A stretch of 64,000 bases of DNA from Candidatus Komeilibacteria bacterium (lineage in GTDB: Bacteria; Patescibacteriota; Patescibacteriia; UBA1558; 2-01-FULL-52-15). Under the pieces are notes generated by a model. It was not told where the DNA came from, did no database searches, and saw only the letters and a list, made by a program, of their open reading frames with translations. The stretch spans positions 70,331 through 134,330 of the forward strand of contig JAZDLR010000016.1 in NCBI GenBank assembly GCA_043801745.1, given 5' to 3'. A program made the position numbers and the translations under genes. This document shows positions 2,353 to 52,148 of the stretch, piece by piece (position 1 is the stretch's first letter; the number at the start of each line of letters is the position of its first letter).

Positions 2353-3113
2353 CTATTCGGGGCCCTGACAGATTATTAATCTGCGGGGCTCTTTTTCTTT
2401 TTTGCTATACTAAAGTCATGAAATTGATTATTGGTTGTGATGAGGCCCCGCACCGCTCCGCCAGAGCCGGAGCTAAGCGGCGTAAACCGGTCGCAAAGCA
2501 AGACGGCTTTATTAAACAACGGATTTTGATTGGTGTAGACGAGGCGGGCCGTGGTGCCTGGGCCGGCCCACTGGTAGCGGCCGCGGTTTGTTTGAAAAAC
2601 GAAAAAAAATTTAAGCACCCTTTAATTAAAGATTCAAAAAAACTTTCACCACAACAAAGGCAGGAAGTTTTTATTTATTTACAACCAATATGTAAGATTG
2701 GAATTGGCGTTGTTGAGGTAGGGGAGATTAATGAGTGGGGATTGCAGAAGGCCAATGTCGTGGCAGTGGAAAGGGCATTAATAGAAGTAAGGAGAAAGAA
2801 GAAGGGAGTAGGGGAAATCTTAATTGATCATATTGGAGGATTTAAAAATTATACTACGCTGAAAGAAAATTATTCGTTACATAAATTCGGTGAAAGTAAA
2901 TATCAGGAAATTGCGGCGGCGTCTATAGTGGCTAAAGTTTCGCGGGATCAGATGATGTGTAAATTACATAAAAAATTTCCGCACTACGGATTTGCTGAAC
3001 ATAAGGGGTATGGAACCCAGCAACATTTAACAGCGCTAAAGAAATACGGAGTGACGCCACTACACCGTTTAAAATTTCAACCAATAATTCGACTGCGGGA
3101 ATTAGTTGAATAA
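2349..3113 (+). CDS. rnhB: ribonuclease HII
   Basis: ILIGVDEAGRGAWAGPLVAAAV active-site motif. The N-terminus is either at 2349 (RBS AAGGAGG) or at the internal MKLIIG (2418). A degenerate copy of the motif (LIIGCDEAP) precedes the canonical one. Confidence 0.85.
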   Translation: MTIRGPDRLLICGALFLFCYTKVMKLIIGCDEAPHRSARAGAKRRKPVAKQDGFIKQRILIGVDEAGRGAWAGPLVAAAVCLKNEKKFKHPLIKDSKKLSPQQRQEVFIYLQPICKIGIGVVEVGEINEWGLQKANVVAVERALIEVRRKKKGVGEILIDHIGGFKNYTTLKENYSLHKFGESKYQEIAAASIVAKVSRDQMMCKLHKKFPHYGFAEHKGYGTQQHLTALKKYGVTPLHRLKFQPIIRLRELVE

Positions 3114-3191: not shown

Positions 3192-4292
3192 TTATTTCTG
3201 GCAAGGCCGGCAGACCCGGGCCTTGGTTTCCTGGAACCGTACCCGCCATGTCCGCTTCTCGGTCGGGAGCGGAAGGAAGGACACGGTGTCACCAGCGGTG
3301 CGTGAGCAGAGAAGCAGCTTCTCGTCGAGAAAGCTGGGAGGCGCCGCCTCGGCTCTGGCCTCTTTTCTTTCCCAGCGCAGGTTGAGCAGCCAGGCGATCC
3401 CGACTATGAGGAGCAATACCGAGTAGAAAATAAGTGGGGTGATGAGAAGGTACAGCCACCAGTTCCCCGTAGGCAGTCCAATGGTGTCGGCGACAATGAC
3501 GACTATCATGAAAAGTGCCAGCCAGATCAGGGGCGTAATAGGAACAAGGAAAACGTTGCCCCGGGCAGGATAATCATCGTAGTCACTGGACCGCACATCG
3601 TCGGGGTTGTAATTCAAGGGGTTGATTACCGGTCTCCAATCGATCCCCTGTTTGTTAAGGAGAAGGAGTCGCCAGACGGCATAGATCAGGGCTAGCAGCG
3701 GCTTGAGCAAGAAAATCACGACCGGCTGAATGAAGATGGCCACCAGCAGCCGCCCGCGTTCTTCACACTCGTTGGCCGGTTCGGAACCGAACCAGCGACT
3801 GATCCAGTGTTTCCACCAGGTCGGCCGTATGGGCGCGAAGTTCTTGTCAGATACGATGACCTTGACGGAGTCAAGGGCGATGAACTTCAGCTCCAGCTCT
3901 CGTCCGATAGTGCGCTGCAGCTCGGCCAAATCATAGCCTTCATCGTTGTAATTGAAGAGCTGACAGCTGAAGCTTCTGAAGGGACGGTTCAGAAGCTTCC
4001 GCATTTTTTCGGCCCCCCCCTTTCCTCCCAGCATGGAGTAGAAGACCAGGCCGATCAGATCATTGGCTCCGCCGGCATTGAACTGGACGAACTGCTGGAG
4101 TTCGTCAGCCCGCACCAGCCAACGCTGCTCATATCCGCTTTTGGTGCGGGTAACAAGCAGAACATAGATTTCCCTGACCTTTTCCTTGAAGGCCAGGGCT
4201 TCCAGCTCAGCAGCGTCAAAGCACCACTGAACCGGTAGATTGTTGGCCGCTTGTTCCAAGGCGGCCGGGATCAGTTTGAACTTGATGAACAT
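3192..4292 (-). CDS. membrane protein with ~190-aa cytosolic N-terminal domain and 3-4 C-terminal TM helices; unknown function
   Basis: Start set at MFIKFK (ATG 4292) with GGAGGT RBS 6 nt upstream. GC-rich relative to neighbours. Hydrophobic segments IFLLKPLLALIYAVW, LIWLALFMIVVIV and LLITPLIFYSVLLLIVGIAWLL. Confidence 0.6.
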   Translation of the reverse strand: MFIKFKLIPAALEQAANNLPVQWCFDAAELEALAFKEKVREIYVLLVTRTKSGYEQRWLVRADELQQFVQFNAGGANDLIGLVFYSMLGGKGGAEKMRKLLNRPFRSFSCQLFNYNDEGYDLAELQRTIGRELELKFIALDSVKVIVSDKNFAPIRPTWWKHWISRWFGSEPANECEERGRLLVAIFIQPVVIFLLKPLLALIYAVWRLLLLNKQGIDWRPVINPLNYNPDDVRSSDYDDYPARGNVFLVPITPLIWLALFMIVVIVADTIGLPTGNWWLYLLITPLIFYSVLLLIVGIAWLLNLRWERKEARAEAAPPSFLDEKLLLCSRTAGDTVSFLPLPTEKRTWRVRFQETKARVCRPCQK

Positions 4293-27066: not shown

Positions 27067-28386
27067 ATGAATACAATGGCTCTACCGGGAATGTTTCCTC
27101 AGATCAAGCCTGGGGAAGTGTACGCTGATTGGACTGGGTCGGCTATTCCGCCGATCCATTTGATCGATCAGCATCATAAGTATTTGGGGGAGAACCTGAT
27201 CGGTAACCCGCACTCTCATCACCGACCGTCAGCTGAGGCGATGGAACGGGTTATGAGTACTCGGGCAGCGATCTTGCGTTATCTCCATGCTTCGCCCGAG
27301 GAGTACGAGGTGATTTTCGGTCCTGGTGCGACTGCTGCCATCCAGTTGGTGGGACAGCACTATAAGTGGGAGGGCGGCGAGTATCTGCTGACTGCCGACA
27401 ACCACAATTCCGTTAACGGAGTACGTGAAATGGCCAAACGCAATGGCGCAGTCGTCAGGTATGCTCCCATTACTGACGATCTGGTCATTGATGGCAACAT
27501 GCTAAGACGGATGCTGCGATTTCCGCGGTCTACTGGTAACAAGCTGTTTGCCTATCCGGCCAAGTCCAACTACTCCGGTGTGCTGCACAGTTTGGAGTGG
27601 GTCGGTCTGGCTCAGAGTCTGGGCTGGGAAGTGCTTCTGGATGCTGCGGCGTTTAACGCCAATAAGCGACTGGACCTTTCAGTCGTCAAGCCGGATTTTG
27701 TCCCGTTCTCTTTTTATAAGATGTTCGGGTTTCCGACCGGCCTTGGTTGTTTGGTCATCCGCAAGAGCGCTTTTGCCAAGCTGGCGCACAAGTGGTTCGC
27801 CGGTGGGTCTATTCTGTTGGTGGCTGTCATGCAGGACTTCTATGCTCCGGAATCTCTGGGGTATGCGAGGTTTGAACATGGTACCATCAACTTCGGTCAG
27901 ATTCCGGCTATTCAGACCGGTCTTCAGTTCATGGAGGACCTGGGGGATGGCGTTGGCGGGCATGCTGTTGATTTGGCTACCGCCCTCTACGATGAACTCG
28001 TGAACATGAAAGAGAATAGTTGTTCATTGCTGGTTCACAGCCCGCGTGGAACCGATACCGTTACCTTCAGTATGAAGAGCGGTGACCAGATCGTGGATGC
28101 TTGGGTATTTGAACAGGAAGCCAGTAAGCGCGGAGTGTTTGTTCGTTCGGGCTGCTTCTGTAACCCGGGTGTGAATGAAAAGGTGTTTGGGTACGGCATC
28201 GAGGCTTACGCTAATCTCTACAACGACGCCATCTTGCCGGAGGCCATCACCATTGAAAAGCTCCGGGAGTTTTCCGACGGAAAGCCAATCGGCGCTATCC
28301 GCGCGTCGTTCGGCTACGCCAACACAGTAGCTGATGTGGTGCGGTTTGCGTCTGTCACGCGGGATATCCTGCGCGCCGAAAAGTAA
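27067..28386 (+). CDS. class-V aminotransferase-fold PLP enzyme (MOCOS/NifS-like sulfurase family)
   Basis: GNPHSHHRPS...VIFGPGATAAIQLVG...LLDAAAF...SFYKMFGFPTGLGCLVIRK resembles the N-terminal domain of Mo-cofactor sulfurases and cysteine desulfurases. GC-rich. Confidence 0.65.
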   Translation: MNTMALPGMFPQIKPGEVYADWTGSAIPPIHLIDQHHKYLGENLIGNPHSHHRPSAEAMERVMSTRAAILRYLHASPEEYEVIFGPGATAAIQLVGQHYKWEGGEYLLTADNHNSVNGVREMAKRNGAVVRYAPITDDLVIDGNMLRRMLRFPRSTGNKLFAYPAKSNYSGVLHSLEWVGLAQSLGWEVLLDAAAFNANKRLDLSVVKPDFVPFSFYKMFGFPTGLGCLVIRKSAFAKLAHKWFAGGSILLVAVMQDFYAPESLGYARFEHGTINFGQIPAIQTGLQFMEDLGDGVGGHAVDLATALYDELVNMKENSCSLLVHSPRGTDTVTFSMKSGDQIVDAWVFEQEASKRGVFVRSGCFCNPGVNEKVFGYGIEAYANLYNDAILPEAITIEKLREFSDGKPIGAIRASFGYANTVADVVRFASVTRDILRAEK

Positions 28387-29228: not shown

Positions 29229-29861
29229 CTATTTTTTTTCTTTTATTTGTCCATCTAATCCGCCGTAATTTATAGCGGGAAGAGCGATCTCGTTAAATCT
29301 AGGATCGGCTTGTTTAGGAATCGGCGCAGTTATGTCTTTCATTTTTGGGCTTCCGGGCTTTACTGGTTCCTGCCTGATTACTTGTATATGGATGTCTCCA
29401 CCGACAAAGCCAAGCGTAACGTGAAAATCTTTCGGGGGCAGTCCGTGTTCAGAGCGAAATTTTTGCAGCGCGGGTATTTCGAAGGAAACAAAAGTAGTCT
29501 TTTTCACCTTATCTACTTCTCGCATTTGCTGTTCGGTAGCAGCTCCGTCAATGAAACCAAGCCCCATTACTGTAATACCCTGGCCATTTTGTAGGTCGGT
29601 ATTAATTTGCTGAAGTTCAGCTAGTGCTTCATCATCTAACGTGCTCAAAATTTTGCTCTCGGTAGGACTAATAATTGTTAAATGATAACCATCGGCCCTG
29701 GGCTGAAGGTCAGCGCCAGTAATAGTCTTTACGGCTTCTAGCGCCGGCGTGAAATCTGCCTGTATTTCTATTTCTAGGGTTTGCATATCGGCCAGACGCT
29801 CGCGGGTTAATTCGGGCGCTTTCTTTAGCAGTTCATCCGTACTCCATTCATGATTTGTCAT
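29229..29861 (-). CDS. 2H phosphoesterase superfamily protein (LigT/2',5'-RNA-ligase-like)
   Basis: Two H-x-T-x motifs (GYHLTII and FHVTLGF) spaced ~90 aa apart, as in LigT-like cyclic phosphodiesterases. Confidence 0.5.
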   Translation of the reverse strand: MTNHEWSTDELLKKAPELTRERLADMQTLEIEIQADFTPALEAVKTITGADLQPRADGYHLTIISPTESKILSTLDDEALAELQQINTDLQNGQGITVMGLGFIDGAATEQQMREVDKVKKTTFVSFEIPALQKFRSEHGLPPKDFHVTLGFVGGDIHIQVIRQEPVKPGSPKMKDITAPIPKQADPRFNEIALPAINYGGLDGQIKEKK

Positions 29862-30052
29862 AATAAAATCTATTAATTTATTAAATCTGCGTCAATTGTA
29901 ACAGGTTGGTGTTGGAGCAGCAATATAGATAATTGACTTCTGTCGCAAAATACATTATAAAATAGTGGCTATTCATTGAAATCGGCCAGAGTTCCTCCGT
30001 CTGCCAACTGGCGGAGCGGGCAGGGGCGAAATTGACTTCGTACTTAGTTTGA

Positions 30053-30137
30053 GGGCGAATGGTGAAATTGGTATACACGCTAGCTTTAGGAGCTAGTGGC
30101 GCAAGCCGTGAGAGTTCGAGTCTCTCTTCGCCCACCA
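30053..30137 (+). tRNA. tRNA-Leu (TAG)
   Basis: Acceptor GGGCGAA/TTCGCCC. Anticodon loop TTTAGGA. Long variable arm. T-arm GAGAGTTCGAGTCTCTC. Encoded CCA. Confidence 0.85.
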
Positions 30138-30198
30138 TGTCTGTGCAGGACAGGAGAATTCGTCTTCCTAAGCAAGCTCTTTTGCACAATATTAGTTT

Positions 30199-30222
30199 GG
30201 GTTCGTAGCTCAGATGGTTAGA
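30199..30222 (+). pseudogene. tRNA-Val 5' half (GGGTTCGTAGCTCAGATGGTTAGA, positions 1-22) followed by GC-rich trailer CCCGCCCGCCATGCTTCGC
   Basis: Identical D-arm to the intact tRNA-Val 60 nt downstream. Ends between D-stem positions 22 and 23. Confidence 0.6.
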
Positions 30223-30281
30223 CCCGCCCGCCATGCTTCGCTGCTTAAAATAATAATTAATAAAATTAACCAACTGTCCAT

Positions 30282-30358
30282 GGGAATGTAGCTCAGATGG
30301 TTAGAGCGCTACATTGACATTGTAGAGGTCACAGGTTCGATTCCTGTCATTCCCACCA
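30282..30358 (+). tRNA. tRNA-Val (GAC)
   Basis: Acceptor GGGAATG/CATTCCC. Anticodon loop TTGACAT. T-loop GGTTCGATTCC. Encoded CCA. Confidence 0.9.
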
Positions 30359-30397
30359 TTGGTAGTCTGGCCCGCACAGCATGGCGAAGCGGGCGGG

Positions 30398-30452
30398 GCG
30401 CTACATTGACATTGTAGAGGTCATTCCGCCGCTGGCGGGACATCGCCCACCA
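30398..30452 (+). pseudogene. tRNA-Val 3' fragment (GCGCTACATTGACATTGTAGAGGTCA...CCCACCA) preceded by leader GCACAGCATGGCGAAGCGGGCGGG complementary to the trailer at 30223-30241
   Basis: Anticodon arm identical to tRNA-Val(GAC). T-arm degenerate. The 3' end resembles that of tRNA-Leu(TAG). Confidence 0.5.
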
Positions 30453-30521
30453 TTAGCCGATATATGTAATTTAACAACTCGACGGTATTGACATGGAAGC
30501 GGTCTATAGTACAATAGTCTT

Positions 30522-31214
30522 ATGAGACCTTATTCATACAACTCTTTGAAGGCGCCAGTTATGGCTTTACGACGAAGAGGGAAAACGTACGCCGAGATTT
30601 GTGCGCATTTACAGGTTCCGATTGCAAAAAGCACCATCTCCTATTGGTGTAAGGATGTGAAGCTCACCAAACAATCGAAGCAACAACTAAAGCATCGTGT
30701 AGAAACGCATCTAGCTAAGCAAAGGGTTTTGGCGTTAAAAGCTAATATTGCCAGGAGGAATAGGTATTTAAAAGAAGTTGATAAACGGGTTTCACATTTG
30801 GGTTCTCACCTAAAAAACAGAAGCGTGGGAAAAATAGTTTTGTCCATACTTTATTGGTGCGAAGGGAAGGGTTCGCAAAGCAGTTCCTTAACATTTGGTA
30901 ACTCAAACCCAGAAATTATTAAGCTATTCTTATCAGTTCTTAGAAAGAATTACGACATAGATGAAGCAAAGTTTCGTTGCACACTACAAGGAAGAGCTGA
31001 CCAAGGAATTAGGGAATTGGAAAAATATTGGTCAACGGTCACTGAAATACCATTGTCACAATTCTATAAGGCACGAATTGATCCGCGGTCAGCAGGCAAA
31101 ACTTCAAGAAAGAAAAACTATAAAGGCGTTTGTAGGATAGATTACTTTTCTGCAGATATCTTTCATGAATTAAAAGCAATACAAAAAAGTTTAATTAAAA
31201 ATATGGGCCTGTAG
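30522..31214 (+). CDS. LAGLIDADG-like homing endonuclease with N-terminal HTH
   Basis: KIVLSILYWCEGKGSQ followed by TFGNSNPEIIKLFLSVLRKNY resembles a degenerate LAGLIDADG block and its following helix. Basic HTH-like N-terminus. The 3' end overlaps tRNA-Ala by 10 nt. Confidence 0.5.
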   Translation: MRPYSYNSLKAPVMALRRRGKTYAEICAHLQVPIAKSTISYWCKDVKLTKQSKQQLKHRVETHLAKQRVLALKANIARRNRYLKEVDKRVSHLGSHLKNRSVGKIVLSILYWCEGKGSQSSSLTFGNSNPEIIKLFLSVLRKNYDIDEAKFRCTLQGRADQGIRELEKYWSTVTEIPLSQFYKARIDPRSAGKTSRKKNYKGVCRIDYFSADIFHELKAIQKSLIKNMGL

Positions 31215-31281
31215 CGCAGTTGGTTAGCGCGTTTGCATGGCATGCAAGAGGTCGAGGGTTCGAATCCCTCCAGGTCCACCA
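31205..31281 (+). tRNA. tRNA-Ala (GGC)
   Basis: G3:U70 pair in the acceptor stem. Anticodon loop ATGGCAT. T-loop GGTTCGAATCC. Encoded CCA. Confidence 0.85.
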
Positions 31282-34595: not shown

Positions 34596-37815
<3,220 letters not shown>

Positions 37816-38202
37816 CTAAAGCTTTGCAAGCTTTATGTCCCCCATAGTTTTATACGAAGGGGGAAGATTGATTCACCATCTTTACCGATTGGGTATAGTC
37901 CGCTATACTAGTTCGGTAATTAGCATATTATATATAGAGAGTTATTGCTCATGAATATTCACAATCGAAACACTGGAGTTATTACCCTAGTTGTTGTATG
38001 TATTGGCCTGGTTGTTTTAGTGGGGGCAGTATTATTACTGACCCCGATTGATCCCAGCCTGCTGCATTAAATAATTATTTAAAGGGTGACCCCGCTATCG
38101 GCCGTAGGCCGAGCGGGGCAAGCAGTGTCCCCGCCTTCGCTCCTCGTTATACTCGGAGCTACGGCGGGCAAGTAGGTACTTTTTAAAAAATCGAGCATAG
38201 TG

Positions 38203-46743: not shown

Positions 46744-46940
46744 TGTAATATAGGACGAATTAATCTCTTAGAACTTACAGCTGCTAATGTACCTATTTTA
46801 GGGTTGTTTTGGCAAGTAAATAAAAAAAGGCCCGAGTGAGCCAAATGATACTTTGGTGGACCCTGCCGGGCTCTCCGCCATCAGGCGGACCCGCCAACAT
46901 TAGATGCAATTATTCGTGGCGGGGAACCGGGAAGGCCATA

Positions 46941-47559: not shown

Positions 47560-47680
47560 TAGGAATATTTTGGGCTGTGCCATTCGTAGCGCAGCCGCAG
47601 AAGTTTTATATAGTTATTTAAGTATAATGTCCATGCTTCGCCCACTGGGCTTCGCAGGACATTCTTCGCTGCGCGAAGAA

Positions 47681-47757
47681 TGGTGGGCAGTATATGATTC
47701 GAACATATGACCTCCTCGGTGTAAACGAGGCGCTCTAACCAGCTGAGCTAACTGCCC
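47681..47757 (-). tRNA. tRNA-Val (TAC)
   Basis: Acceptor GGGCAGT/ACTGCCC. Anticodon loop TTTACAC. T-loop TGTTCGAATCA. Encoded CCA. Confidence 0.85.
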
Positions 47758-47849: not shown

Positions 47850-47965
47850 TCGTCGTGGCCAATGCGTTTTGTTGGAAGTACGATATACCAACCCTGTACC
47901 ACCCGGGGTACAGAGCCCTGAACTCCACGTAGTTCAGGGTTTCATCGCCTCGGCAAAAGAGCCGC

Positions 47966-51898: not shown

Positions 51899-51921
51899 GG
51901 GTCGTTAGCTCAGCTGGTAGA
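51899..51921 (+). pseudogene. tRNA-Lys 5' half (GGGTCGTTAGCTCAGCTGGTAGA, positions 1-22) followed by trailer CCTGCCCGCCGCTCGCC
   Basis: Ends at the same D-stem position (22|23) as the Val-locus half. Confidence 0.6.
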
Positions 51922-51973
51922 CCTGCCCGCCGCTCGCCAATTGTTATTTAAAAAACTTGTTTTTATTAAATAT

Positions 51974-52050
51974 GGGTCCATAGCTCAGCCTGGTAGAGCA
52001 GTTGCCTCTTAAGCAAACGGTCGTAGGTTCGAATCCTACTGGACCCACCA
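51974..52050 (+). tRNA. tRNA-Lys (CTT)
   Basis: Acceptor GGGTCCA/TGGACCC. Anticodon loop CTCTTAA. T-loop GGTTCGAATCC. Encoded CCA. Confidence 0.9.
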
Positions 52051-52095
52051 TTATCACTAGTTGTCATGCGTCTCAAGCGAGCTATGGCAGGCGGG

Positions 52096-52148
52096 GCAGT
52101 TGCCTCTTAAGCAAACGGTCGCAGGTTCGAATCCTGCACGACCCACCA
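52096..52148 (+). pseudogene. tRNA-Lys 3' half (GCAGTTGCCTCTTAAGCAAACGGTCGCAGGTTCGAATCCTGCACGACCCACCA), intact, preceded by leader GCGAGCTATGGCAGGCGGG
   Basis: Acceptor 3' strand ACGACCC pairs perfectly with GGGTCGT of the 5' half at 51899. Anticodon arm identical to tRNA-Lys(CTT). Confidence 0.6.

Follow-up and report, generated by a model that had tools for sequence, protein, structure and literature searches.

A tRNA-Val gene on an insert with paired GC-rich ends lies inside an older, decayed tRNA-Val gene in a Komeilibacteria genome, one of several cognate tRNA nests in Patescibacteria

We analysed a 64,000-nt stretch of a Candidatus Komeilibacteria contig (hereafter the window); the parts of the two nests described below and the genes beside the Val nest lie on its forward strand. 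At 30199-30452 a working tRNA-Val gene is carried by a 175-nt insert with matching GC-rich ends, which lies inside an older tRNA-Val gene; this outer copy is present as a 24-nt 5' piece and a 55-nt 3' piece. Each component named in the original prediction, from tRNA-Leu(TAG) to the 3' piece, was found in its place, and the insert is exactly 175 nt long (30223-30397). The intact tRNA-Leu(TAG) gene is the upstream neighbour (30053-30137; ARAGORN; Rfam tRNA score of 58.7 bits). It is followed by the displaced tRNA-Val 5' piece at 30199-30222 (GGGTTCGTAGCTCAGATGGTTAGA; nt 1-23 in standard numbering, acceptor strand GGGTTCG), 21 of whose 24 nt match the start of the intact inner tRNA-Val. The insert opens with a left arm at 30223-30244 (CCCGCCCGCCATGCTTCGCTGC), continues with a spacer that reads directly as AT-rich (30245-30281), and carries at 30282-30358 the intact inner tRNA-Val(GAC) with acceptor stem GGGAATG/CATTCCC and encoded CCA (ARAGORN cloverleaf; Rfam tRNA score of 75.7 bits). 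A right spacer and right arm occupy 30359-30397, the arm itself (GCACAGCATGGCGAAGCGGGCGGG) spanning 30374-30397. The displaced 3' piece (30398-30452) is made up of an anticodon arm, a GC hairpin and an acceptor 3' strand. Its anticodon arm (30398-30423) is identical at 26 of 26 positions to 30306-30331 of the inner gene, the GC hairpin at 30424-30440 takes the place of the T-arm, and ATCGCCC plus ACCA stand at 30442-30452. The 3' fragment had been described as resuming at position 23 after a break at D-arm position 22/23. It does resume exactly where the 5' piece ends, but that piece is 24 nt long, so the break falls at standard position 23/24, two bases inside the 3' strand of the D-stem, and the fragment resumes at 24.

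Both junctions are marked by a perfect 9-nt inverted repeat, formed by the first 9 nt of the left arm (CCCGCCCGC, 30223-30231) and the last 9 nt of the right arm (GCGGGCGGG, 30389-30397). A second 9-nt block in the arms (30229-30237 / 30378-30386) pairs in a shifted register, and the arms co-fold at approximately -37 kcal/mol. The insert ends are complementary, as proposed; the proposed continuous helix of ~19 bp is in fact 9 bp plus interrupted shorter blocks. A generic repeat in the window was rejected as the source of the ends, since each terminal 9-mer occurs once in the 64 kb and the related motif is found solely at a second nest (tRNA-Lys, see below) and in a relic upstream of tRNA-Leu. 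This relic at 30009-30042 is a decayed older copy of the right arm plus the start of the Val anticodon arm and also belongs to repeat family D6. Its local alignment to 30382-30416 scores 34, compared with 14.5 ± 2.3 for shuffled sequences (0 of 2000 reached 34).

The outer Val copy cannot make a tRNA; the inner one, by contrast, is a normal gene. ARAGORN recognised no tRNA in the joined Val pieces, and their acceptor strands (GGGTTCG and ATCGCCC) form only three Watson-Crick pairs and one G-U pair out of seven. The outer copy is thus a relic as suggested, with its T-arm replaced by a GC hairpin, and its two parts are not the halves of one tRNA-Val. The end of the 3' piece and the spacer downstream are orthologous to a normal tRNA-Val(GAC) that precedes the same ORF in a relative (L003), and the acceptor strand ATCGCCC matches the acceptor stem of another (L052, GGGCGAT/ATCGCCC). 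Because the two flanking pieces are not of one gene, the locus has a history that goes beyond a single simple insertion.

Immediately downstream, a promoter-like TTGACA-16-TACAAT (30488-30515) precedes ORF230 (30522-31214), which carries an HTH and a single LAGLIDADG-fold domain, in agreement with the LAGLIDADG-like gene reported ~70 bp downstream of the 3' fragment. The end of ORF230 is overlapped by tRNA-Ala(GGC) (31205-31281; ARAGORN), a linkage kept in ~78 of 83 loci. ORF230 is not part of the insert, and its conservation resembles that of a housekeeping gene. No transposase was found among the scanned neighbouring ORFs, and the fold of ORF230 is LAGLIDADG, not HUH. A single uninterrupted tRNA-Val(GAC) was found before the same ORF in more distant relatives (L013, L051, L052 and L074). 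Among close relatives, no unoccupied tRNA-Val(GAC) or tRNA-Lys(CTT) allele was found: L003 stops inside the tRNA and synteny is lost elsewhere. The metagenome scan yielded no match above 53% identity, the contigs with the closest ORF230 are short and end inside or before the Val gene, and synteny with the upstream 2H-phosphoesterase gene is not kept in relatives.

A second nest is located in the same window at 51899-52148. The outer tRNA-Lys(CTT) is split at the same D-stem position as the outer Val, into a 5' half at 51899-51921 (GGGTCGTTAGCTCAGCTGGTAGA) and a 3' half at 52096-52148. The 174-nt insert between them (51922-52095, arms CCTGCCCGCCGCTCGCC and GCGAGCTATGGCAGGCGGG) carries an intact tRNA-Lys(CTT) at 51974-52050. 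When the outer halves were joined, ARAGORN reported a perfect 76-nt tRNA-Lys(CTT). Inner and outer Lys genes differ by six substitutions, which make up three compensatory pairs, and by a 1-nt indel in the D-loop. The left arm of the Lys insert (CCTGCCCGCC) is homologous to that of the Val insert, and the terminal inverted repeats of both inserts (CCTGCCCGCC/GGCAGGCGGG for Lys, CCCGCCCGC/GCGGGCGGG for Val) are found in Arg units as well. The outer Lys 3' half is probably transcribed, because a terminator-like hairpin and a T-run follow it. The consensus scan detected no promoter inside the Val or Lys insert; a weak TTGTTA-17-TATTAA before the inner Lys gene was read by eye. No resemblance was seen between the insert flanks and those of the outer gene, and a local duplication of the gene together with its flanks was rejected for this reason.

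Only one relative of the Lys flank gene was found, in the close relative L208 (flank protein 82% identical), and the tRNA cluster beside it is a different one. In L208 a GIY-YIG nuclease ORF separates an intact tRNA-Val(TAC) from a perfect 61-nt copy of the 3' part of that gene, the copy beginning at nt 18; the window represents the unoccupied state.

Nested tRNA genes are not confined to the window. Among 303 tRNA genes at other Patescibacteria loci, no fewer than 12 are nested, always cognate in cognate, and 8 of the 303 are bracketed by a matching outer acceptor pair and T-arm (1.25 in permutations). In five loci (the Lys locus, L045, L051, L059 and L069) the joined outer pieces form a tRNA with the anticodon of the inner gene. 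An Arg(CCT) unit of exactly 109 nt recurs in four lineages (L004, L043, L045 and L069), with a diverged fifth copy in L060, and nests of Ser(CGA), Ser(TGA) and Leu(CAA) carry different arms. The insertion points fall at 21/22, 23/24, 35/36 or 37/38 of the cloverleaf, that is, in loops or at loop edges. At Val, Lys, L045 and L030 the 5' and 3' pieces add up to an uninterrupted tRNA sequence with no repeated base. All inner copies that were located by way of their arms are intact. The outer copies are mostly decayed and range from perfect (those of Lys, L045, L051 and L059 are flawless) to heavily decayed, as in L060 by G-to-A and C-to-T changes. The nested tRNA-in-tRNA layout is apparently new to the literature.

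Recurrence also bears on a possible mis-join of two tRNA-Val alleles or strains during metagenome assembly. The source is a metagenome-assembled genome, and the short contigs of relatives break inside or beside these tRNAs. Such an artefact is extremely improbable, however, since the same architecture, arms and unit length are seen in unrelated projects and lineages and twice in the window, and unique GC-rich inverted repeats exactly at both junctions would not arise from a mis-join.

The arms form a predicted duplex in every copy (-26 to -37 kcal/mol). In the arm alignment, 87.8% of cells are paired and three changes are double-sided, and pairing of the helix is kept even where the outer pieces have decayed. 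That the helix is kept suggests that the arms serve in RNA or in hairpin DNA and are not just scars. Spacers part the arms from the outer pieces in L030, L035 and L051; what is constant is the helix around the inner tRNA, and not a helix at the outer junction. The arms also occur free-standing as multi-copy hairpin repeats, and it is only such cargo-less hairpins that are dispersed. The insert ends had been weighed against a generic GC-rich repeat unrelated to tRNA loci; a common repeat they are, but one tied to tRNA loci. In viral contigs, the right-arm 16-mer is accompanied by a paired arm solely at four loci (L118, L127, L134 and L156; 7 hits), and its other matches there are mostly chance occurrences in GC-rich DNA. 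The CCGCC-N-GGCGG hairpin was also considered as a mobile unit; this is unproven, one copy being the tip of a native 23S helix.

In addition to the arms, a 20-nt palindrome (CCTGCCTGCCGGCAGGCAGG) was found precisely inserted in relics and in loops of tRNAs, with no duplication. It is present in one and absent from the other of the orthologous Leu relics of L208 and the window. It also interrupts the variable loop of a tRNA-Met that is complete in other respects (L197), and it occurs at 21/22 of a tRNA-Lys-like gene with an additional, intron-like GIY-YIG insert (L204). Arms and palindrome are identical across contigs of very different GC content, which would imply a sequence-specific factor acting on tRNA genes. 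ORF230 as the enzyme of the palindrome is not supported, since the palindrome is also carried by GC-rich contigs from well outside the phylum to which ORF230 was traced.

Fragments of tRNA genes and GC hairpins abound in the window and in related loci; besides the relic at 30009-30042 they include an Ala(TGC) 3' relic (46854-46895), a Leu(GAG) 5' relic (47916-47954) and strings of relics in L076 and L056. The nests could therefore be recombination debris with no dedicated element, left by duplication, unequal crossing-over, conversion and hairpin rearrangement, the GC hairpins being ordinary structural or terminator-like repeats at breakpoints. Unequal crossing-over predicts a tandem duplicate of the right arm plus 3' half such as that in L069. 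The outer 3' piece copies the inner gene nearly exactly in L030 and L043, and the mismatched flanking pieces at Val would fit as well. We nevertheless consider this origin quite unlikely: both break points coincide to the base, a complete cognate tRNA is rebuilt in five independent loci, the insert flanks were not copied from those of the outer gene, and distant lineages share the arm sequences and the unit length of 109 nt. Moreover, the intact inner and outer pairs differ in the acceptor stem (some also in the T stem) with both cloverleaves fully paired. At Lys every difference is compensatory. A recent local copy left to decay neutrally would not produce such patterns.

The flawless outer copies and the compensatory Lys changes are also expected from continued selection on an outer tRNA that is still used. 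The insert could then be an intervening sequence of the outer tRNA. With the entire unit transcribed and the arms folded into a helix, the inner tRNA would be released by RNase P and 3' processing; the outer halves, kept in contact by that helix and by acceptor and D stems of their own, would be trimmed and then joined or used as a two-piece tRNA, in parallel to archaeal split tRNAs or to the rRNA intervening sequences cut out by RNase III. The minimum free energy fold of the L045 unit is a nested double cloverleaf with the arm helix rising from the outer D-loop (z -3.9; 0 of 200 shuffles). Arm pairing in every copy with its double-sided changes, insertion at loops or loop edges, the five outer copies that are perfect after exact excision, the hairpin and T-run after the outer Lys 3' half, and the palindromes in tRNA-Met (L197) and the Lys-like gene (L204) are all consistent with events in RNA. 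From this RNA-level viewpoint the Val locus would be a copy whose outer tRNA was later lost. Processing of this kind is unlikely in our judgement. No bulge-helix-bulge motif is found, the joined Val product is not a tRNA, and spacers part the arms from the outer pieces in three loci. With most outer copies decayed and the inner copies intact, the outer tRNA is at best dispensable. We also know of no bacterial enzyme that cuts exactly at the base of the helix on both sides and rejoins the ends.

Archaeal split and intron-bearing tRNA genes include the split tRNAs of Nanoarchaeum, the tri-split tRNAs of Caldivirga and the non-canonical introns of the Thermoproteales, which transpose from one tRNA gene to another. 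The nests resemble them in non-canonical interruption sites (among them the D-arm and 37/38), in complementary GC-rich sequences beside the halves, in related inserts at different positions of different tRNAs, and in the tRNA restored by excision at Lys, L045, L051, L059 and L069. They differ in the bacterial host, in the complete cognate tRNA held by the insert, in halves that are adjacent and not dispersed, and in an interrupted copy that is usually decayed and in no case found to be the sole gene for its anticodon. A functional split tRNA-Val was rejected, since no tRNA results from joining the halves and their acceptor strands do not pair. A bulge-helix-bulge intron was rejected by the geometry of the junctions. 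Two 3-nt bulges, 4 bp apart, are absent at the Val junctions, where the arm helix abuts both exon ends, and the predicted folds give a bulge-free three-way junction. The archaeal-like split or permuted precursor put forward as one reading of the Val locus is contradicted by this geometry, by the mismatched halves and by the intact cognate gene inside the insert.

Intervening sequences of bacterial 23S rRNA form stems and are removed by RNase III without re-ligation. As in the nests, a stable-RNA gene of bacteria sporadically holds a short insert, the two ends of which form a long stem (-26 to -37 kcal/mol here), with no target duplication. In the nests, by contrast, the host is a tRNA gene and the insert carries a full tRNA, and the Val host RNA cannot fold as a tRNA. 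Among mobile repeats, MITEs, REP/REPIN sequences with their RAYT transposases, and the Rickettsia palindromic elements, which insert in RNA and protein genes, are likewise GC-rich hairpin repeats that occur free-standing in multiple copies, are present or absent in relatives and are tolerated in structured RNA genes. Shared terminal inverted repeats, a MITE feature, are present in the nests. A target-site duplication is absent at Val, Lys, L045 and L030, and classical DDE-type transposition thus does not fit. Unlike these elements, the nests carry a complete tRNA as cargo, and the cargo-bearing units were found solely in cognate tRNA genes, with no dispersal to unrelated sites.

Homing-endonuclease cassettes in tRNA clusters (such as SegB in the tRNA region of phage T4) and integrative elements that restore the interrupted tRNA gene share with the nests a setting in nuclease-rich tRNA clusters, exact insertion, an incoming tRNA that keeps a working gene, and a displaced fragment, as beside the GIY-YIG ORF of L208. 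Occupied and unoccupied alleles were observed for tRNA-Val(TAC) (L208 vs. the window) and for the palindrome of the Leu relic. The Val and Lys inserts differ in having no nuclease or integrase and in their size (109-175 nt among the nests). Since an entire tRNA was brought in, there is a displaced fragment on each side, one 5' and one 3'. An integrase with a direct repeat of only the 3' part was not found at Val, where the 175-nt insert has no ORF. Group I introns have been described in tRNA genes of Patescibacteria as self-splicing ribozymes in the anticodon loop, at 35/36 and nearby (Nakagawa et al., 2026, PMC13011429). The phylum is the same, and in both cases interrupted tRNA genes are missed by standard finders; the Val and Lys nests differ in showing no ribozyme fold, in the mostly D-arm site and in the tRNA inside. 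Rfam detected no group I intron or other RNA family in the insert, only the two tRNAs (gathering threshold across the window; E ≤ 1 for 29850-30550), and the Val insert minus its 77-nt tRNA leaves 98 nt.

The reading that we favour, with a probability of roughly 0.55, is that an exact cassette bounded by inverted repeats brings in a replacement tRNA, after which the resident gene decays. We lean slightly toward regarding the Val locus as an old, decayed member of this recurrent Patescibacteria design. The tiny tRNA-bearing mobile element with terminal inverted repeats, the other reading of the original prediction, fits better than the archaeal-like one and is strongly supported by the Lys nest, the copies in other Patescibacteria and the free-standing hairpins; with no target-site duplication and all cargo copies in cognate tRNA genes, it is not a standard MITE.

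In the proposed course of events, a small cassette with a complete tRNA gene would enter the resident cognate gene without loss or duplication of a single base, the entry point being either the anticodon loop or a site at or close to the 3' edge of the D-loop. Spread would most likely be by homing-type double-strand-break repair in nuclease-rich tRNA clusters, or by other tRNA-gene-directed insertion. Against this, the cassette is too small to encode an insertion enzyme, and ORF230 lies outside it. Given one gene per anticodon, survivors would be limited to insertions that bring the cognate tRNA. In the transcript, pairing of the arms may expose the inner tRNA to the usual processing of its 5' and 3' ends. 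At Val, the inner tRNA-Val(GAC) presumably does the decoding, and the resident gene, once interrupted, would have become redundant; in its 3' end it is orthologous to the Val gene that relatives carry before the same ORF. This resident copy would then have decayed, with the T-arm replaced by a hairpin and the 5' piece probably derived from a different copy or round of insertion. Gene conversion and unequal crossing-over between inner and outer segments may be what holds the D-arm and anticodon-arm stretches at identity, and may also be the source of the other relics.

Should the cassette reading be correct, a tiny, (semi-)selfish unit destroys an essential single-copy tRNA gene, supplies the replacement and so becomes indispensable. 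The cargo tRNA itself may possibly direct the cassette to its cognate gene, which would make it a tRNA-guided, self-compensating mobile element. It is also conceivable, if doubtful, that a transcribed tRNA-in-tRNA precursor yields two tRNAs, the inner one being released and the outer halves, clamped by the arm helix, being trimmed and ligated or working as two pieces. If true, this would be the first protein-dependent tRNA splitting or splicing system in bacteria that does not use a bulge-helix-bulge. Whether split tRNA genes are ancestral or derived is a long-standing debate, on which intact outer copies, if expressed, would bear as a bacterial counterpart of the archaeal split tRNAs. Annotation is affected too: tRNA finders do not see the outer copies, and relics may be mistaken for missing or extra tRNAs. 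The cassette reading would explain tRNA-gene turnover and xenologous replacement in the most reduced bacterial genomes.

The Val nest lies between tRNA-Leu(TAG) (30053-30137) and the 230-aa ORF230 (30522-31214, plus strand). Direct reading of the sequence confirmed the order of pieces given in the original prediction: tRNA-Leu, a 24-nt tRNA-Val 5' piece (30199-30222; 21 of 24 positions match the inner gene), a 175-nt insert (30223-30397) containing an intact inner tRNA-Val(GAC) (30282-30358; Rfam 75.7 bits), and a tRNA-Val 3' piece (30398-30452) whose first 26 nt match the inner gene at 26/26 positions. The 3' piece resumes at the exact base where the 5' piece ends. The break had been placed at D-arm position 22/23; it actually falls within the D-stem, between standard positions 23 and 24. 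The insert starts and ends with 9-nt stretches (CCCGCCCGC / GCGGGCGGG) that are perfectly complementary and each single-copy in the 64 kb; the chance probability of 9-nt complementarity at two predetermined insert positions is ~4e-6. The arms, as we call the GC-rich insert ends, co-fold at ~-37 kcal/mol, with a 9-bp helix that gives way to interrupted blocks, so that the predicted arm complementarity stood and the continuous ~19-bp helix did not. The 11-mer GCGAAGCATGG was found three times in the window (~0.03 expected), in the left arm of the Val insert (30231-30241), downstream of tRNA-Val(TAC) and inside an aminotransferase ORF (other sites 27285-27295 and 47631-47641, minus strand). Neighbouring proteins are 99-100% identical to NCBI entries of the Komeilibacteria (Patescibacteria) MAG from which the window comes, and bacterial 23S and 5S rRNA are present in the window.

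A working split tRNA-Val was rejected. ARAGORN recognized no tRNA in the joined halves, the T-arm of the 3' piece is replaced by a hairpin (TTCCGCCGCTGGCGGGA), and the acceptor strands GGGTTCG (5') and ATCGCCC (3') are mispaired, with only three Watson-Crick positions and one G-U. The bulge-helix-bulge (BHB) motif of archaeal split tRNAs is absent at the nest junctions because the arm helix directly abuts both of them, and the archaeal-like split precursor, one of the two readings first offered, fails here. Even at E ≤ 1, Rfam gave nothing in the nest region beyond the tRNAs. At locus L003 (ORF 77% identical) a tRNA-Val with a normal T-arm ends in the same ...ATCGCCCACCA and is followed by the same spacer, and at L052 the Val(GAC) gene preceding the ORF has the acceptor GGGCGAT/ATCGCCC. 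These matches identify the 3' piece as what is left of the resident, syntenic Val(GAC) gene. It is not partnered by the 5' piece (GGGTTCG), so either there were at least two events or copies underwent conversion. A third copy, in a worse state of decay and consisting of the right arm and the start of the anticodon arm, is located upstream of tRNA-Leu at 30009-30042 (score 34 vs. 14.5 ± 2.3 for shuffles, 0/2000).

Listing the flanks of all ten window tRNAs revealed a second nest of the same design after tRNA-Arg(TCG). The outer (interrupted) tRNA-Lys(CTT) consists of a 5' half at 51899-51921 (GGGTCGTTAGCTCAGCTGGTAGA) and a 3' half at 52096-52148, separated by a 174-nt insert (51922-52095; ends CCTGCCCGCC... 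and ...GGCAGGCGGG) that carries an intact tRNA-Lys(CTT) at 51974-52050. The split is at the same D-stem point as in the Val nest (between GA and GC), and the insert ends of the two nests align. The joined Lys halves form a perfect 76-nt tRNA-Lys(CTT), which differs from the inner copy by six substitutions making up three compensatory base pairs (6:67, 7:66, 50:64), plus one D-loop base. No unoccupied allele of the Val(GAC) or Lys(CTT) nest was found in the loci of relatives examined.

We collected ~590 kb of loci via the ORF230 family and then searched them for nests; because the sample was drawn around a single gene family located in tRNA-rich regions, the nest frequencies are not genome-wide. 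Four loci (L004, L043, L045, and L069) contain tRNA-Arg(CCT) inside a split tRNA-Arg(CCT), and in 4/4 the unit measures exactly 109 nt, with the 72-nt tRNA between left and right arms of 19 and 18 nt (CCTGCCCGCCATGGCC... / ...GGCGATGGCAGGCGGG). L060 is a diverged copy of this nest. The split is at 21/22 in L045, L043, and L060 and at 37/38 in L069; in L004 the 5' piece stops at nt 21 and the 3' piece begins at nt 38. Nests with different arm sequences were found for Ser(CGA) (L028, L030, L035, and probably L049 and L066), Ser(TGA) (L051, split 35/36), and Leu(CAA) (L059, split 21/22). In a blind scan, 8 of 303 tRNAs were bracketed by a mutually matching outer acceptor pair and T-arm; random pairing of upstream and downstream flanks yielded 1.25 on average and 3 at most. 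With decayed cases included, at least 12 of the 303 tRNA genes are nested, all of them cognate in cognate. Recombination debris and an assembly artefact both fit the data poorly; we consider the former improbable and the latter hardly credible. Degenerate 5' tRNA pieces with GC hairpin interruptions were also seen upstream of intact Arg(TCG)/Arg(CCT) (L056/L086 2785-2870, L088, and L076 1460-1640). The string of several 5' relics in L076 suggests repeated rounds of replacement.

All inner copies detected via the arms are intact. The outer copies range from whole to dead. Joined outer halves are recognized as cognate tRNAs with the inner anticodon in the Lys nest, L045, L051, L059, and L069 (where the anticodon stem retains only 3/5 pairs); in L035 and L028 the acceptor strands still pair and the middle is missing or decayed; the outer copy is dead in the Val nest, L043, L004, L030 (middle missing), and L060 (G-to-A and C-to-T decay). 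Long stretches of the D-arm and anticodon arm are identical between the inner and outer copies of a genome, which differ mainly in acceptor pairs 4-7:66-69 and the T-stem. Across genomes the inner tRNAs differ and the arms are ~91% identical. Gene conversion has probably occurred between the closely spaced inner and outer copies, and unequal crossing-over would account for the tandem "right arm + 3' half" of L069 and for the 5'-relic-only loci L056 and L076.

Local duplication does not fit: the insert flanks are unrelated to those of the outer gene, and intact inner/outer pairs differ at stem positions with both cloverleaves fully paired (in Lys, 6/6 substitutions are compensatory). A randomly inserting element would be expected mostly outside tRNA genes, where no cargo-bearing unit was found. 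Based on the cognate-in-cognate rule and the failure of local duplication, we favour an exact insertion cassette, bounded by inverted repeats and carrying a replacement tRNA, at a probability of roughly 0.55. Such a cassette could spread by homing-type break repair with the outer pieces as homology, or by tRNA-gene-directed insertion in which only insertions into cognate genes survive, each anticodon having a single gene in these genomes. Once the cassette is in, the resident copy would become redundant and decay, the Val nest being an old and the Lys nest a young example. The main rival holds that cells still use the intact outer copies, with the insert as an intervening sequence. This would give a coherent structure and has the striking intact outer copies in its favour, but most outer copies are dead and we know of no bacterial activity that would cut such an insert out exactly; we regard it as unlikely.

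For each of the known systems likened to the nest that could be tested, at least one defining feature is lacking. The nest somewhat resembles archaeal intron-containing or split tRNAs but has no BHB; palindromic MITE or REPIN elements, but without target duplication; and target-restoring integrative or homing cassettes, but its insert carries no integrase or nuclease gene. It also bears some likeness to rRNA intervening sequences. In Patescibacteria, group I introns interrupt tRNAs at the anticodon loop (PMC13011429), whereas the nest insert has no ribozyme. The literature covered, which was incomplete, contained only these introns and work on archaeal split tRNAs, and no match to the nest architecture or sequences.

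In the compact Arg units the ~17-bp arm helix has one end at the outer junction and the other at the acceptor stem of the inner tRNA, to which a single base links it on the 5' side; the helix picks up directly after the discriminator. Five copies taken together have 87.8% of their cells paired, and three of the pairs show changes on both sides (2/500 shuffles reach three double changes; slid registers give 0-1). Covariation in these five sequences lends modest support to an RNA helix or to co-evolving inverted repeats. Folded as RNA, the whole L045 unit has a nested double cloverleaf as its minimum free energy structure (z -3.9).

Several copies on contigs L118, L127, L134, and L156 have both arms directly joined with no tRNA between them. 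The perfect 20-nt palindrome formed from the two terminal arm 10-mers, CCTGCCTGCCGGCAGGCAGG, is present in many Patescibacteria loci (including L005, L006, L013, L020, L030, L043, L045, and L060) and in 35 viral-collection loci (L173-L207), and is identical across contigs of 38% to 68% GC. Short direct heptamer-like repeats often flank it, and several contigs have 2-4 copies. That unrelated genomes share the palindrome unchanged suggests a very mobile element or a sequence-specific factor. In the L030 and L043 relics, for which the sequence before insertion is known, it went in exactly and without duplication. In L197 (2239-2330) the palindrome forms an extra arm in the variable loop of a complete tRNA-Met that ARAGORN still calls; in L204 (497-801) it sits exactly at 21/22 of a tRNA-Lys(TTT)-like gene, and a GIY-YIG ORF begins in the anticodon-loop region. 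Both the window (47916-47954, minus strand) and L208 (about 3300-3350) have a tRNA-Leu(GAG) 5' relic upstream of the intact gene; the palindrome variant CCTGCCTGCCGACAGGCAGG follows nt 8 of the L208 relic and is absent from the orthologous window relic.

Other small GC hairpins were noted in the window. At 46854-46895 (minus strand), some 55 nt beyond the 3' end of tRNA-Ala(TGC), a hairpin TCCGCCTGATGGCGGA is followed by CCGGCAGGGTCCACCA; the sequence resembles the Ala(TGC) 3' end, with the "hairpin + acceptor strand + ACCA" look of the Val relic. CCGCC-N3-6-GGCGG hairpins occur seven times (13961, 30426, 35485, 36031, 46875, 51715, and 61406), three of them identical (CCGCCTTTGGCGG); one is the T-arm replacement of the Val relic, one is in a 53-nt 23S rRNA insertion, and one is a native 23S helix tip. 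The 23S rRNA gene (34601-37819) has no adjacent 16S and measures 3219 nt vs. a 2925-position model; part of the extra sequence is that 53-nt insertion, at ~35457-35509.

ORF230 belongs to a large family, restricted to Patescibacteria among named records and ~50% identical across them (L001-L109). Its members combine an HTH with one LAGLIDADG-fold domain and match no Pfam family. In ~78 of 83 loci, a tRNA-Ala(GGC) follows the homologue on the same strand within ~100 nt, often overlapping it (window 30522-31281). L208, from a relative whose flank protein is 82% identical to that of the window, carries at 2398-2840 (minus strand) an intact tRNA-Val(TAC), a GIY-YIG ORF (Pfam 3e-14), GC hairpins, and a duplicate tRNA segment, a 61-nt perfect copy of tRNA-Val(TAC) that starts at nt 18 and runs through its 3' end. 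Another GIY-YIG ORF in L208 abuts tRNA-Ala(TGC). The window Val(TAC) locus (47681-47757) has the same distal flank and no cassette, and thus represents the unoccupied state. This comparison shows that tRNA genes of this lineage receive nuclease-gene cassettes at the D-loop, and that the cassettes bring replacement tRNA sequence with them.
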